From: a virus
Taxonomy: Duplodnaviria; Heunggongvirae; Uroviricota; Caudoviricetes
DNA length: 10,930 bases
Reading direction: 5' to 3' (one strand)
Virus record (IMG/VR): IMGVR_UViG_2531839666_000021
Coordinates: 1-10,930 of that record
The notes beneath the pieces are model-generated. The model had not been told where the DNA came from and did no database searches. It saw nothing but the letters and a program-made list of their open reading frames with translations. This document shows, in pieces, positions 2,158-7,901 of the stretch (position 1 is its first letter; every line of letters starts with the position of its first letter). A program made the translations under genes and the position numbers.

Positions 2158-3091
2158 ATGACTGATATTAACGATGTAATCAAGACCATTGATGAACTTA
2201 TTGATGGCGGCGTACTGACGCAGTATGCCATCGCCAGAGAGGCGGGAATTTCCGACGGCACATTATCGGCTTTCCGCAAGGGGAAATATAAAGGCGATAA
2301 CGCCGCTGTGGCTGCTTCCCTGCGTTCCTGGTATGAGAACTGGAATAAACAAAGCGCACTGCCGGAACCGCCGCAGTTTGTGGAAACGCAGACAGTTCAG
2401 GAGCTGCGCGCACTGTTTCAGGCGGTTCGCCTGATGGGCTGTATTAACGTCATTGTGGGCGTGCCGGGGGTAGGTAAAAACGGCCACCGCCCGTAATTAC
2501 TGCCAGGAGCAACCAAACACCTGGATGATCACCCTGTCACCCGCGCACTCCAGCGTCACGGAGTGTCTGCTGGAGCTGGCCGATGCGCTGGGGATTGATT
2601 ACACCCGCGCGAACAAAGGGGCATTATCCCGCGCCATCCGCCGTCGCCTGATGGGAACGCGTGGACTGGTGATTGTGGATGAGGCGGATCATCTTGGTAT
2701 TGACGGTCTGGAGCAACTCCGGGCAATTCAGGACGCCACGGGGATCGGGATGGTGCTTATTGGTAACCCGCGCGGATTGTTTAAAGGTGGACGCCGCGCC
2801 TTTGATGATTTATCGCGCCTGTTCAGCCGTCTTGCCCGTACAAAACAACTTCGCAAGGCCAAAAAGGCGGATGTGCTGGCCATTGCCAGGGCATGGGGTA
2901 TCAGTGGTGAGGCCGAGCTGGCCGTCATGCAGGCTATCGCTGAAAAGCCGGGAGCGTTACGCGTTCTGACACATACGCTTAACCAGGCGTGGCTCACCGC
3001 CAGCGGTGAAGGTGCGGCGCTGACAGAAAAACATATTAATGCGGCCTTTAAAGAGGTTTATACCAACCCTGAATTACTCTCACAGGTGTGA
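2158..3091 (+). CDS. MuB-like AAA+ ATPase (transposition target-DNA activator B); frameshifted at A5 run 2476-2480
   Basis: RBS GAGAGG 2144-2149, ATG 2158. Frame-1 ORF 2158-2496 ends GVPGVGK-NGHRP*; frame 2 continues KTATARNY...WMITLSP to stop at 3091. The joined product has Walker A GVPGVGKT and Walker B LVIVDEADHL and resembles MuB over its N-terminus and core. Confidence 0.85.
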
Positions 3092-3315
3092 TTATGGCGG
3101 TATTTTATATTCCTGATATTTACGGACGCTTTTACCTGGTTAATTTCGATAACGTGAAGGTGATTTCACTGGCCGAAAATAAAGAATGTGGCGATTTACT
3201 TTTTGAATTTAATGACCGCACACGAATGGTGATATCTGCCGGACTTGATCGCGAAGGTGCGACAGAAGTTTACAGCGGAATATGCCGTTCTGTTGGTGCG
3301 AAACAAGTCAGCTAA
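3088..3315 (+). CDS. small hypothetical protein (73-75 aa) immediately downstream of B; occupies the position of kil in Mu
   Basis: ORF with GTG 3088 or ATG 3094, overlapping the B stop (3089-3091); AGGTG at 3084-3088. No recognisable motif; the Kil suggestion is positional only. Confidence 0.5.
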   Translation: MIMAVFYIPDIYGRFYLVNFDNVKVISLAENKECGDLLFEFNDRTRMVISAGLDREGATEVYSGICRSVGAKQVS

Positions 3316-3581: not shown

Positions 3582-3863
3582 GTGAAAAAAAATCTCATTG
3601 CATGGGCGTGGTCGAGTGGTCTTATTGAGTTTGGTTACGTCCTGCCGGAAGGTGCATTGCCGATAGTTGCCGGAAAGCCTGCCACGGTACGGCATGTGAT
3701 TGAGGTTATGGCGCGTCATGGACGTGATGAACAGGAGCAGTTACTGGTTCCGGGGATACCGGAAGCGGTGACGGAGGAAGAAGCCTTTAATGCCATGATT
3801 CGGTTCTGCCGTGAGGTCAGACGCCGGGTCAGTTATCCAAACAGAACGAGGACCAGAGGATGA
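3582..3863 (+). CDS. hypothetical protein (93 aa)
   Basis: GTG 3582 with GGAGG 3571-3575 at a 6-nt spacer; stop overlaps the next start (ATGA at 3860-3863). Confidence 0.55.
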   Translation: MKKNLIAWAWSSGLIEFGYVLPEGALPIVAGKPATVRHVIEVMARHGRDEQEQLLVPGIPEAVTEEEAFNAMIRFCREVRRRVSYPNRTRTRG

Positions 3864-4132
3864 GTAAAGTCGTACGCATTATTTTCGAATACAAGGAGCA
3901 CGTTATCCATAAAAACGCTGATGGAACAGTGCGCATGGGGGTAAGTCTGGACATACGTTCAACCGGGATAAAGCAGAAAGGTGATGGACCCGCCATGATT
4001 TTTGGAGTGGTTATGCTCGCGGAAAGCAGAGACTTTGCTGAACTTGTGGCAATGAAAGCCAGAGCGCTCATGAAAGATATGAACATGAGTTCCGGGGTTA
4101 TTAAAGGTAATGAATTTAATCAGCAGGGGTAA
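3860..4132 (+). CDS. hypothetical protein (90 aa), member of a tandem paralog pair
   Basis: ATG 3860 in an ATGA overlap with the upstream stop; RBS AGAGG 3855-3859. N-terminus MSKVVRIIFEYKEH is shared with the next ORF. Confidence 0.55.
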   Translation: MSKVVRIIFEYKEHVIHKNADGTVRMGVSLDIRSTGIKQKGDGPAMIFGVVMLAESRDFAELVAMKARALMKDMNMSSGVIKGNEFNQQG

Positions 4133-4136
4133 TTCC

Positions 4137-4430
4137 ATGAGCAAAGTACGCGTTATTTTTGAATTTGAGCATGTTTCGCATGACGAAAAACCGGCAGGCA
4201 ATGACAGTGTTGAAGTGCATGAAAAGATTGGAGTGGATGTGAAAACAGAACGTGATACGGATAACAGGCCGACGTCACTCTGTGACGTTTATGCAAGCAT
4301 TCTCCAGTATCACAGTCCTGTAATTATTCAGTTTCTCTCAGCGGAATTTCAGGCATCTGTACAGGCTTTTGGGGCGGATGCCATCATTAAACGCCACCGC
4401 GTGCATAAAGCATCAGGCACACTGCAATAA
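4137..4430 (+). CDS. hypothetical protein (97 aa), paralog of 3860-4132
   Basis: ATG 4137 (the track ORF starts at 4110, but ATG 4137 follows the upstream stop at 4130-4132 and a G-rich RBS 4126-4129). N-terminus MSKVRVIFEFEH. Confidence 0.55.
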   Translation: MSKVRVIFEFEHVSHDEKPAGNDSVEVHEKIGVDVKTERDTDNRPTSLCDVYASILQYHSPVIIQFLSAEFQASVQAFGADAIIKRHRVHKASGTLQ

Positions 4431-4440
4431 GGAAAACAAA

Positions 4441-4970
4441 ATGGCTAAACGTGTTACAAAATTAAAGGCCGCAGCCGAGGCTGCACCGCAGACCCGTGAA
4501 GAGGTCAGCCGCGATATCCGCACCCTGGGCGATATTCAGCGAGAGGCGCTGCGCCTGGAAACAGCGATGAATGATGAAGTGGCAGAAATCACCGCCCGTT
4601 ATACGCCGCAGATTGAAAACCTTAAAAAGAAATCAAAGTGCTTTTTAAGGGGATTCAGGACTGGTGCAAAACCAACCGTGATGAGCTGACGAACGGCGGC
4701 AAAACCAAAACTGCCAATCTGACCACCGGAACGGTGTCATGGCGACTGGGGAATCCATCATGCAGCGTCAGTCGTGATGTGGAAGGTGTGATTGAAATGC
4801 TGCGCCGTATGGGGCTTGAGCGATTCATCCGCACGAAAGAGGAAGTGAACAAGGAAGCCGTCCTGGCGGAGCCGGATGCGGTGAAAGGCATTGCCGGTAT
4901 AAAGGTGAATAAAGGCGCTGAAAGTTTTTATGTCGAGCCTTTTGAACAGGACGCCGGACTGAATAAATAA
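4441..4970 (+). CDS. gam: host-nuclease inhibitor protein Gam (Mu Gam family); frameshifted near 4624-4629
   Basis: RBS AAGGA 4429-4433, ATG 4441. Frame-1 part MAKRVTKLKAAAEA...LRLETAMNDEVAEIT and frame-3 part (from 4626) KEIKVLFKGIQDWCKTNRDELTNGGKTKTANL...FIRTKEEVNKEA...PFEQDAGL both match the Mu Gam pattern as I recall it; the join requires one extra base in the A5/G run 4624-4629. Confidence 0.85.
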
Positions 4971-5067
4971 CACCACATTAAATCTTTAAATATCACATCG
5001 TTTTAATTATGGCGCTCGCGTCAGGGGACTGCCTGCGCCTGAAAGCTGAAAATAAGGAATCGGAAAC

Positions 5068-5610
5068 ATGGCATATTTTTATTTCAAATTAGACATAGTG
5101 TACACAAATAAATATTTCACCGAATATCAGCGGGATGTTTTACCGCTACGCAACAGTATTCTTCGGGCATTACTGAAAAATACAGGCGCTGCCGGATTGC
5201 GCTTAAAGCCGTTCGCCATGGACGTAATCAGTGAGTTTTATTTTTCTGGTTCTCTGCCTGCGGGCTGGCGTAAGCGCGATGATGTGGCTTTTATCGGGGA
5301 CGGACCGTGCTTTATTGCCAGACCTGATGAGTTATGCCCTGAAGGACCGGCGATTGCCGCAATGGTTGAAGCCGCTGAACGCGATTTAAGAAAGCATCCT
5401 GATTTCCTTGTCTGGCTCTGTGAAAAGCTGGGGGTAATGAGAATCCCCTCCATGTTTAACACGGACTCCTGGTGGACCCCTTCGTTCTCCCGTGATGCCC
5501 TGTGCGTGGTGTTTAAAGTGGGCGCTTATGGCAGGGAAATAAACGGGTGTATTCCTGAAGAATGCCAGGAAATTAAACATTCTGAATATGTGGCGCTGAC
5601 GGAGGAATAA
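5068..5610 (+). CDS. hypothetical protein (180 aa)
   Basis: ATG 5068 with AAGGA 5054-5058; strongly AT-rich 5' end; no recognisable motif. Confidence 0.5.
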   Translation: MAYFYFKLDIVYTNKYFTEYQRDVLPLRNSILRALLKNTGAAGLRLKPFAMDVISEFYFSGSLPAGWRKRDDVAFIGDGPCFIARPDELCPEGPAIAAMVEAAERDLRKHPDFLVWLCEKLGVMRIPSMFNTDSWWTPSFSRDALCVVFKVGAYGREINGCIPEECQEIKHSEYVALTEE

Positions 5611-5620
5611 TTCATGATTG

Positions 5621-6145
5621 ATGCAAAAGTGCTTGAGGGTTAAAAACTGGCTGCGTATTTACGGACGTCTGACCTGCGGCATTCTGGCTGAAAAAATGAA
5701 TATGCCGCCATCCTCGATGGTTTATTTTCTGCGTGATGCGGTCGATGCCGGGGTGCTGACGGAATGTAACGGTTTTTATGATATTCCGCGTCCCCGCCCG
5801 GTGCAGCCGGTTCGTCGCAAATGCAGCCAGGAAGGTGCGGCTGATGATGTTCAGTGGTGCAGCTTCAGAAAGTCCCTGCCGTGGATTGAGGGGCATGATA
5901 TTCCGTCGATGGCGTGGGAATTTGCTCAGGGCGTACTGACCTGCGAAACCGTTTATGTGGTGGCTGAAGTTGATGAGCAGGCCATGAAAGAAGGTGTACC
6001 CCAGTTTGTGATGGCGTATATCGACATACGCCTGGGTGTCATTATCTGCGGTTTAAGCGGCTGGAATATCACCGGACATGTTCTGCGTTACCTGATTGTT
6101 GACCGGACGGCTGCACCTGCCGGGATATCTGCGGAGGTGGCGTAA
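5621..6145 (+). CDS. hypothetical protein (about 174 aa) with a possible winged-helix-like N-terminus
   Basis: Frame-3 ORF, TTG 5618 or ATG 5621. N-terminal segment LRIYGRLTCGILAEKMNMPPSSMVYFLRDAVDAGVLTE looks HTH-like. The start is uncertain (see finding on the SD at 5601-5606). Confidence 0.5.
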   Translation: MQKCLRVKNWLRIYGRLTCGILAEKMNMPPSSMVYFLRDAVDAGVLTECNGFYDIPRPRPVQPVRRKCSQEGAADDVQWCSFRKSLPWIEGHDIPSMAWEFAQGVLTCETVYVVAEVDEQAMKEGVPQFVMAYIDIRLGVIICGLSGWNITGHVLRYLIVDRTAAPAGISAEVA

Positions 6146-6660
6146 TGTTCTTTAAAACATCAAACCCTTCCGCGCTGGCTGCGTGGCAAAAATACCAGCA
6201 GGACTACAAGAAAGTTAAGGATGAGGCAAAACGTCTTGAGGCCGTGCTGAATGTTGATTGTCGGTCGGTATTTGTATCCGGTATCAATGGTTTTTATTTT
6301 AAAGGACTGCGTTTTACGGATAACAAATATCCTTTTCATCGCGACTTATGGCGAAAACCGACTGCGTCGAATGGCTGGAGCTGCACGCCGCGCACATCGT
6401 GTATTCCCAAAGCCCTGTGCGCTGCCTCTGACGAACTTAACAGTCTGTGGCGTGAATATTCGCCCGTCACGTATGCCAGAACCGATGCCCTGTTGTTCTG
6501 GCTGGGTATTGATTTCTCGGCAATCCTGTTTGGCCCTGTGGAGTGGTTCTGCGTTGACGATGTGATTTACCTTCAGTGCGGCGTAAAACCCGCAAAACAG
6601 AAAATGACCGAAATTCTGTCTGATGAGTTTTATGCTGCTGAAAAGCGAGTCAGGGGGTGA
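6145..6660 (+). CDS. hypothetical protein (171 aa)
   Basis: ATG 6145 overlaps the upstream stop by 1 nt (TAATG); no recognisable motif. Confidence 0.5.
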   Translation: MFFKTSNPSALAAWQKYQQDYKKVKDEAKRLEAVLNVDCRSVFVSGINGFYFKGLRFTDNKYPFHRDLWRKPTASNGWSCTPRTSCIPKALCAASDELNSLWREYSPVTYARTDALLFWLGIDFSAILFGPVEWFCVDDVIYLQCGVKPAKQKMTEILSDEFYAAEKRVRG

Positions 6661-6663
6661 TGT

Positions 6664-7215
6664 ATGATGATTTTACAACCCATGGGGAGAAAAGGCCGTG
6701 CACCCGCTCATGTCCGTGCGTGGACACCTGAAGAAGATGCACTGCTGATTGCGCTTTATCCATCCACCCCGGTTAAGGATATTGCTGTCAGGGTAAAAAG
6801 AAGTTTCTGGGGTGTACATAACCGGATTGTTTTATTACGCGGTACTTACCCGGAGTTGCTCAAATGCAAACGTCCAAGATTTAAACATGATGAAGATAAA
6901 TTTATCCGAAAAAATGCCAGAACGATGACCGGTAAGCAAATAGGAGAATATCTGGGGCGAGACCGGGATTCTGTCCACAAACGGGCGCGATATATTGGCG
7001 TAAGCATGAAAAAATACGGAGAGTTGCTGCCCTTCACCCGTATACCTGATGATGATGTTCATCTTATTCGTGAATTACGGGATGCTGAATCACCACGACG
7101 TCTTACCTTCCGGGAAATAGGCGAGAAATTTGAATTATCCGAGAGTACGGTGAATTTTATTTATCACCATCGCCGGACTGCCGAAGATGTTGTATTACGG
7201 GAGTTAATGCCATGA
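6664..7215 (+). CDS. putative DNA-binding protein with repeated Myb/SANT-like or GcrA-like HTH motifs
   Basis: RBS GGGGG 6654-6658, ATG 6664. Motifs AWTPEEDALLIALY, MTGKQIGEYLGRDRDSVHKRARYIGVS and LTFREIGEKFELSESTVNFIYHHRR. First gene of the AT-rich island. Confidence 0.55.
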   Translation: MMILQPMGRKGRAPAHVRAWTPEEDALLIALYPSTPVKDIAVRVKRSFWGVHNRIVLLRGTYPELLKCKRPRFKHDEDKFIRKNARTMTGKQIGEYLGRDRDSVHKRARYIGVSMKKYGELLPFTRIPDDDVHLIRELRDAESPRRLTFREIGEKFELSESTVNFIYHHRRTAEDVVLRELMP

Positions 7216-7427
7216 TAACGACATTATTTGTTGAATCAGACGAGCCTCTGGTATGTGCCGCCGGAATGTCGGTTTGTGGCGGAACGCTGACCGGTGTTTA
7301 TTTCGGGGATTTGCGCGGTTATCCCTGGCATTCACTGGATGACGCATTTCCGCCTGATATGGAGGCAGTCGTGCTGATTGTTCAGTATGGTGCAACAGGA
7401 ACTGCGCATCGGCCATATGGGGTATGA
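7212..7427 (+). CDS. hypothetical protein (71 aa as given; probably 103 aa, 7212-7521, if one G is removed from the G4 run at 7419-7422)
   Basis: ATG 7212 in an ATGA overlap with the upstream stop. Frame 1 continues from about 7417 to the stop at 7519-7521, which would create an ATGA overlap with ATG 7518. Confidence 0.45.
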   Translation: MITTLFVESDEPLVCAAGMSVCGGTLTGVYFGDLRGYPWHSLDDAFPPDMEAVVLIVQYGATGTAHRPYGV

Positions 7428-7493
7428 AGGCTTTTTTATTGATGAAGAAACCGGAGCCTGCCTTGAAGATGAGGACGGACAGGTGACGCACTG

Positions 7494-7901
7494 GTGCCAT
7501 ATTTCAGCTTTACCGGAATGACGGGAGGTGAATGCGTGAGAAGTTATATTGATAATGAAAAACTGAAGACAATCAGCGACTGTCTTAGCTTGCTGGCAAA
7601 AATAAAAGAAACCATTGAAGAGATTAAATTTCAGCTTGAATACGCACCCTGTGGTGATGATACATGGCGTAACTCTGCCAGAAAAGCACTGGCTGTCTTT
7701 CAGAAACAACGCCGGACTGTTGAATACCGCCTTGCTGTATTACGCCAGGAGGAAAAGGAAAGAAATATAAGATGTCACGAGCGCGTTAATAACTTCCTTG
7801 TTCGTGAATTAAAGAACGTGTGCCGGAGTCGGTATTTTTTGAGTGTGAGGCTGTTGCCCGTAGCAAAGCACTGGAAACTGATTAAACAGGCAGGTGAATG
7901 A
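7494..7901 (+). CDS. hypothetical protein, predicted coiled-coil-rich (122-135 aa depending on start)
   Basis: Frame-3 ORF; candidate starts GTG 7494 (SD AGGTGA 7481-7486), ATG 7518 (ATGA coupling if the upstream frameshift is corrected) or GTG 7536 (SD GGGAGG 7523-7528). AT-rich. Confidence 0.5.
   Translation: MPYFSFTGMTGGECVRSYIDNEKLKTISDCLSLLAKIKETIEEIKFQLEYAPCGDDTWRNSARKALAVFQKQRRTVEYRLAVLRQEEKERNIRCHERVNNFLVRELKNVCRSRYFLSVRLLPVAKHWKLIKQAGE

Follow-up and report, generated by a model that had tools for sequence, protein, structure and literature searches.

The window analysed here, a stretch of 10,930 nucleotides, carries at positions 6664 to 7215 a gene for a small and basic protein (pI 10). 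In this protein a sequence-only reading had seen three HTH-like motifs, and had placed its gene first in an AT-rich island that it might regulate. What kind of protein is this, and does it govern the genes that follow it? The gene is an early gene of a Mu-like transposable prophage of E. coli, and it lies among the following features:

5618..6145, + strand: homologue of Mu gp11, two genes upstream of the gene in question (phrog_1949; Pfam Gp11_C, 5.7e-41 on the reference copy)
6145..6660, + strand: homologue of Mu gp12, directly upstream (phrog_2314; 54% identical to Mu gp12)
6651..6656, + strand: Shine-Dalgarno sequence AGGGGG of the gene in question, read from the sequence, within the final codons of the gp12-like gene
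6664..7215, + strand: the gene in question, a complete CDS of 183 aa with ATG start and TGA stop (ORF list)
7212..7427, + strand: downstream gene overlapping its stop codon (phrog_6925), shortened by a 2-nt deletion at about 7392

The ORF was found to be exact, with the AGGGGG sequence 7 nt 5' of the ATG at 6664, and the gene is real, intact and under purifying selection: dN/dS was 0.295 against a 70%-identical homologue and 0.137 against a 53%-identical one. A pseudogene or chance ORF was ruled out by these values (0.14-0.30), by the length of the protein, which is conserved in 28 homologues, and by the absence of indels, with none in the gene and 19 in the rest of the window when compared with an intact reference prophage. 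The region 5000-9000 of the window was found in 233 of 5426 complete E. coli genomes, and 33 homologues of the protein were found in all. Its RefSeq homologue (WP_000973026.1) is labelled as a hypothetical protein, while other database names are 'AsnC family protein' and 'SANT/Myb domain-containing protein'.

The three peptides on which the HTH-like motifs were based are present in the protein (AWTPEEDALLIALY at aa 19-32, MTGKQIGEYLGRDRDSVHKRARYIGVS at aa 88-114 and LTFREIGEKFELSESTVNFIYHHRR at aa 147-171). Structure prediction, which had been proposed as the check on this claim, shows three HTH folds and the claim stands. In the AlphaFold2 model, whose secondary structure is all helix, the whole 183-aa chain is taken up by three separate HTH bundles of three helices each, with in-domain blocks at a pLDDT of about 90. 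The following parts were distinguished, with helices as given by AlphaFold2:

6664..6711, + strand: conserved N-terminal arm, predicted to be disordered (aa 1-16, consensus M-ILxPMGxxGxxPAH)
6712..6849, + strand: repeat 1, a basic Myb/SANT/GcrA-like three-helix HTH (aa 17-62; helices 22-31, 37-43 and 48-59)
6871..7011, + strand: repeat 2, a Myb/GcrA-like HTH and the most basic domain (aa 70-116; helices 75-84, 90-97 and 101-110)
7033..7176, + strand: repeat 3, a probable sigma-r4/LuxR/AsnC-type HTH (aa 124-171; helices 129-140, 149-156 and 160-169)
7180..7206, + strand: conserved C-terminal helix (aa 173-181, TAEDxxLRE)

Profile comparison shows repeat 1 to be a paralogue of repeat 2 (hhalign probability 98.3%, E 2e-14); repeat 2 also matches repeat 3 across the HTH core (E 6e-5). 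Repeats 1 and 2 have pI values of 9.98 and 10.7, the latter with 14 Lys and Arg residues, and in this charge they are like DNA-binding Myb domains and unlike the acidic SANT domains, whereas repeat 3 is itself acidic (pI 5.5). Nowhere does the family vary more than in the predicted recognition helices, whose entropies are 1.68, 1.82 and 2.03 for repeats 1 to 3. As a feature of the alignment, this variability would fit with DNA binding of low specificity or specific to a lineage, and it points to no target; a search of the window for DNA targets revealed no repeat arrays, clustered motifs or repeated candidate sites. In repeat 3 the variable third helix (column entropy 2.03) follows two that are nearly invariant (DxDVxLIRELRD ... 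LTFREIGEKF; 0.48 for helix 1 and 0.23 for helix 2), and these two could form a protein-binding rather than a DNA-binding surface. Conservation extends to both ends of the chain. In the homologue alignment, G11 and H16 of the N-terminal arm are invariant and L4, P6 and P14 nearly so (mean entropy 0.90), at a pLDDT of 46-64 in the AlphaFold2 model, and this segment may be a DNA-contacting or partner-binding arm. Around the C-terminal helix (mean entropy 0.91), T172 is invariant, with A173 and E180 nearly invariant.

When the protein was searched alone, no Pfam match reached its gathering score. Sigma70_r4 scored 19.4 bits against a gathering score of 24.1, and Myb_DNA-binding and Myb_DNA-bind_6 scored 14.6 and 16.1 bits against 24.4 and 22.9; in repeat 3, sub-threshold HTH matches lie at aa 131-167. 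Among the 28 homologues, Myb_DNA-binding was matched by 19 (E<=0.01, best 6.3e-9) and Sigma70_r4 by 20 (best 4.9e-8), and at the family level the evidence for HTHs is, in these searches, well above chance. The third motif had been described as sigma-R4/LuxR-like, which agrees with repeat 3 as a probable sigma-r4/LuxR/AsnC-type HTH. Repeat 3 alone gave nothing significant against PDB sequences (best E 0.025), and TIGR02937 reached 14.7 against 42.9 bits at aa 146-166. Sigma region 2, receiver and ligand-binding domains were absent from the protein in Pfam and NCBIfam searches.

For the first two motifs, a Myb/SANT-like and a GcrA-like character had been proposed. The former is borne out by the family profile, which matches c-Myb R2R3 with an E-value of 2.7e-6 over two repeats in register, R2 aligning with repeat 1 and R3 with repeat 2. 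The repeats have the bundle of about 50 aa and three helices in which helices 2 and 3 form the HTH, although of the three regular tryptophans of Myb domains (c-Myb, 1h88/1mse; WER, 6kks) only the first is kept (W20, with F73 in repeat 2). W20 is invariant in the family and the F73 position is W in the P2-like subgroup, while at Trp positions 2 and 3 of c-Myb the aligned residues, in the stretches DIAVRV and NRIVLL, are not aromatic. The protein further differs from Myb R2R3 by its third, non-Myb HTH, and it is phage-derived while Myb R2R3 is eukaryotic. GcrA is an alphaproteobacterial protein with one DNA-binding domain, and the fold of this domain is the best structural match, so that the likeness itself holds. 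What did not hold is motif 2 as a separate GcrA-type domain: it is of the same repeat type as motif 1 (E 2e-14), its sequence match to Caulobacter GcrA (5yiu) is weak (E 0.19), and Pfam GcrA (PF07750) gave no match on the protein at E<=10 and none on the 28 homologues at E<=0.01. In contrast to GcrA, the protein has no C-terminal sigma-70-binding region and ends after repeat 3. The top Foldseek match in the PDB for the whole model was an archaeal CRISPR-repeat-binding protein (2lvs, E 0.06), which was also matched by the full family profile (E 2.6e-4) and by repeat 2 alone (E 0.0019) with a closely similar repeat pattern. Both proteins are small, with tandem homeodomain-like HTH units on flexible linkers, but 2lvs is archaeal and differs in repeat count; by its entry title it is a binder of CRISPR repeat DNA, and nothing ties the phage protein to CRISPR.

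By profile search, the protein belongs to the T5 D5/Mu gp9 family, PHROG 323. It matches phrog_323 with an E-value of 6.3e-58 (aa 2-182 on profile positions 80-256 of 319), and the same profile is matched by T5 D5 (1.2e-71) and Mu gp9 (5.2e-29). D5 (T5.118, 255 aa), the founding member of PHROG 323, aligns over 144 columns (hhalign 96.6%, E 6.7e-10, about 26% identity; aa 18-171 on D5 72-232). The two are colinear over all three HTH repeats, including the invariant tryptophan (W20, equivalent to D5 W74), and repeat 3 aligns with D5 residues about 195-232. At its N-terminus D5 has some 70 further residues, which appear to form a fourth HTH-like unit. Mu gp9 (E8, Mup09, 99 aa) aligns with aa 66-166 (hhalign 97.7%, E 1.3e-12, 33% identity), its first repeat with repeat 2 and its second with repeat 3, and it has neither repeat 1 nor the conserved N-terminal arm. 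The number of HTH repeats is two in Mu gp9, three in the protein studied here and about four in T5 D5. Within a Mu-type genome, both Mu gp9 and the present gene belong to the semi-essential early region, at different positions: gp9 just before gam, and the present gene after gp12, where Mu has an unrelated 60-aa gp13. No gp9-like gene was found before gam in the prophage of the window. Mu gp13 and gp14 were considered as positional counterparts and rejected, since they belong to unrelated PHROGs. Membership in PHROG 323 with T5 D5 and Mu gp9 does not figure in the sequence-only reading.

For D5, the note in the T5 record reads 'DNA-binding protein; required for DNA replication and late transcription; also involved in shutoff', and the title of a 1979 paper by McCorquodale, as cited in PMC12630848, names it as a DNA-binding protein. 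In a 2026 preprint (doi 10.64898/2026.07.11.737809), D5 is described as a 26-kDa monomer by mass photometry that is mildly toxic alone, and is reported to trigger a type IX retron (retron-Kva2) via its HTH, which is proposed from an AlphaFold3 model to bind a DNA stem-loop; docking on the msdDNA stem-loop of the retron is reported. The early region in which the present gene lies has been described as largely uncharacterised (PMC3820752). Nothing specific on Mu gp9/E8, or on prophage proteins of Myb/SANT type, was found in a literature search, and one on phage 'GcrA-like' proteins returned Caulobacter and Brucella phages only.

As an HTH protein encoded 5' of genes of lower GC (0.40-0.46 at 7494-8763), the protein might be supposed to be a sequence-specific transcription factor controlling the small AT-rich genes downstream (about 7212-8763) as a module, all the more as the adjoining gene, whose product has 103 aa where the prophage is intact, is conserved beside this one in Mu-like relatives (81% identical between E. 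coli and Salmonella Mu-like prophages). The context makes this very improbable. The gene is not the first of an island. It is embedded in a long early operon and has no promoter space of its own: the stop codon of the gp12-like gene (6658-6660) lies 3 nt before its start, its own stop codon overlaps the next start in an ATGA (7212-7215), and no promoter- or terminator-like sites adjoin it. Neither promoter- nor terminator-like sites are enriched around it (for promoter-like sites in 4900-9800, 6 observed against 6.2 expected by chance). The AT-rich island is itself a weak feature, as the GC content of the gene (0.453) is below that of the window (0.513) but other early genes are equally low (0.417 at 3088-3315 and 0.44-0.45 at 3860-4430). 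Regulation of the island, as suggested from the sequence, is not supported because the examined Salmonella relatives keep this gene but have others in place of those further downstream; P2-like relatives, moreover, carry it in an early operon upstream of replication gene A, with entirely different neighbours and without any island gene. What is constant in the Mu-like relatives examined is the linkage to gp11 and gp12 homologues, which precede the gene in every one of them (Pfam Phage_Mu_Gp12 being matched in these relatives). In T5, D5 lies between the ligase and the helicase/primase/polymerase genes, and in all relatives examined (Mu-like, P2-like and T5) the gene is part of an early or replication module. 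A methyl-DNA reader paired with a methyltransferase in the manner of GcrA was also considered, as a Dam-type methyltransferase gene lies two genes upstream in three P2-like Salmonella prophages; this candidate was rejected, the linkage failing in Citrobacter phage Shae_phiSM and in all Mu-like relatives examined.

Rather than its neighbours, the protein might act on the host. GcrA couples its DNA-binding domain with a sigma-70 contact, and a takeover factor of this kind would bind host promoters or RNA polymerase and reprogramme early host transcription, with helices 1 and 2 of repeat 3 and the C-terminal helix as its protein-contact surface. The best structural match being the GcrA DNA-binding domain, the resemblance of repeat 3 to sigma region 4, and the involvement of T5 D5 in shutoff with its toxicity when expressed alone are all in keeping with such a role, and the near invariance of the two helices (0.48 and 0.23) in Mu-like as well as P2-like lineages, whose hosts are shared, suggests a common partner. 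It is nonetheless unlikely: there is neither a match to Pfam GcrA nor a counterpart of the C-terminal sigma-binding part of GcrA, the T-x-x-E-I-G/A of helix 2 in repeat 3 is the usual scaffold of classical HTHs, so that its conservation may be structural, and the variable recognition helices argue against a single conserved host DNA target. The HTH module of this type is used for DNA targeting in other proteins, being fused to a helicase in P0035 and present at the N-terminus of HNH endonuclease gp103 of mycobacteriophage Thibault (35% identity to aa 12-114, that is, repeats 1 and 2), whose gene sits between two ORFs both annotated as DNA methylase. Endonucleases were also among the BFVD structural matches, and while PADLOC defence-system models gave no match for eight neighbouring proteins, the protein itself weakly matched two models of homing or HNH endonucleases, HEase of PADLOC (E 0.0017, aa 18-165; its only match there) and phrog_1891 (0.0055). 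That it is an orphaned DNA-binding module of a homing endonuclease, either a remnant with no role or an occupier of a homing or cleavage site, is nevertheless very doubtful. Three HTHs take up the whole 183 aa, the third standing in place of an HNH domain, which was absent in Pfam and for which the model has no room; a decaying remnant would not be expected to stay under purifying selection or to keep its operon position fixed in each of two phage backbones; and among full-length relatives the closest, T5 D5 and Mu gp9, are free-standing. Hardly credible at all is an Lrp/AsnC-family transcriptional regulator, the name in most NCBI records, an identity refuted by the domain architecture. HTH_AsnC scored 22.6 bits against a gathering score of 27 and covers aa 131-163, that is, repeat 3 only, which is C-terminal in this protein. 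The RAM (AsnC_trans_reg) domain that binds ligand and defines the family was found neither in the protein or its homologues (Pfam) nor in the AlphaFold2 model, and the two Myb-type HTH repeats are foreign to the family. Judged from these domain searches, the 'AsnC family' name is an over-annotation.

On balance, the protein is rather to be regarded as a probable non-essential, accessory, dsDNA-binding protein of phage DNA transactions, monomeric and D5-like, and not as a regulator of its neighbours. DNA binding, binding as a monomer and the D5-like role are inferred. The gene is transcribed and translated within the early operon of the prophage, and the protein carries its three independently folded HTH domains on flexible linkers. 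As a monomer it would bind double-stranded DNA, with most of the affinity provided by the basic Myb/GcrA-like repeats 1 and 2, perhaps aided by the conserved N-terminal arm, while the classical HTH of repeat 3 would add a further DNA contact or present a conserved partner surface. Such a non-essential accessory factor would act in early lytic growth and, by analogy with D5, may modulate how the phage DNA replicates (by replicative transposition in this case), the change from early to late transcription, or both, with no dedicated regulation of neighbouring genes. Both genes are early genes in a replication-associated module, D5 being required in a virulent phage and the present gene lying in an early region that a temperate transposable phage can dispense with. 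The function of D5 may not transfer, because the similarity is remote (26% identity) and because D5 is required by T5 while the semi-essential region of Mu is dispensable.

A more speculative idea, and a decidedly improbable one, is that proteins of the D5 family recognise structured or unusual DNA instead of ordinary promoters, the present protein reading long asymmetric or non-B DNA with its three linked HTHs. If so, candidate ligands would be Mu transposition intermediates or phage ends, with the protein as the unmapped helper of 'amplified replication', or alternatively host msDNA, in which case a resident prophage would carry in this protein a retron trigger or an anti-retron decoy; helices 1 and 2 of repeat 3 would then be a contact surface for a host factor or a defence sensor.

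Returning to the favoured accessory role, the protein would be an ordinary DNA-binding accessory protein of a phage, which indicates no new kind of system and has modest practical value. The gain is in annotation, as E. coli and Salmonella sequences misleadingly named 'AsnC family protein' or 'hypothetical protein', of which there are well over a thousand, could be given the defensible label of a three-repeat Myb/GcrA-like HTH protein of the T5 D5/Mu gp9 family. This ties Mu gp9, and the gene that Mu-like prophages of Shiga-toxin-producing E. coli carry in the gp13 slot, to D5, the sole family member with biochemistry. Prophage relatives of D5 become candidates for the replication-stimulating function of the Mu semi-essential region and, given the D5 preprint, candidate triggers or modulators of type IX retron defence. 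DRT4 is activated by another 'phage-encoded DNA binding protein' of T5, namely ORF55, a PriA-NTD-like ssDNA binder unrelated to D5.

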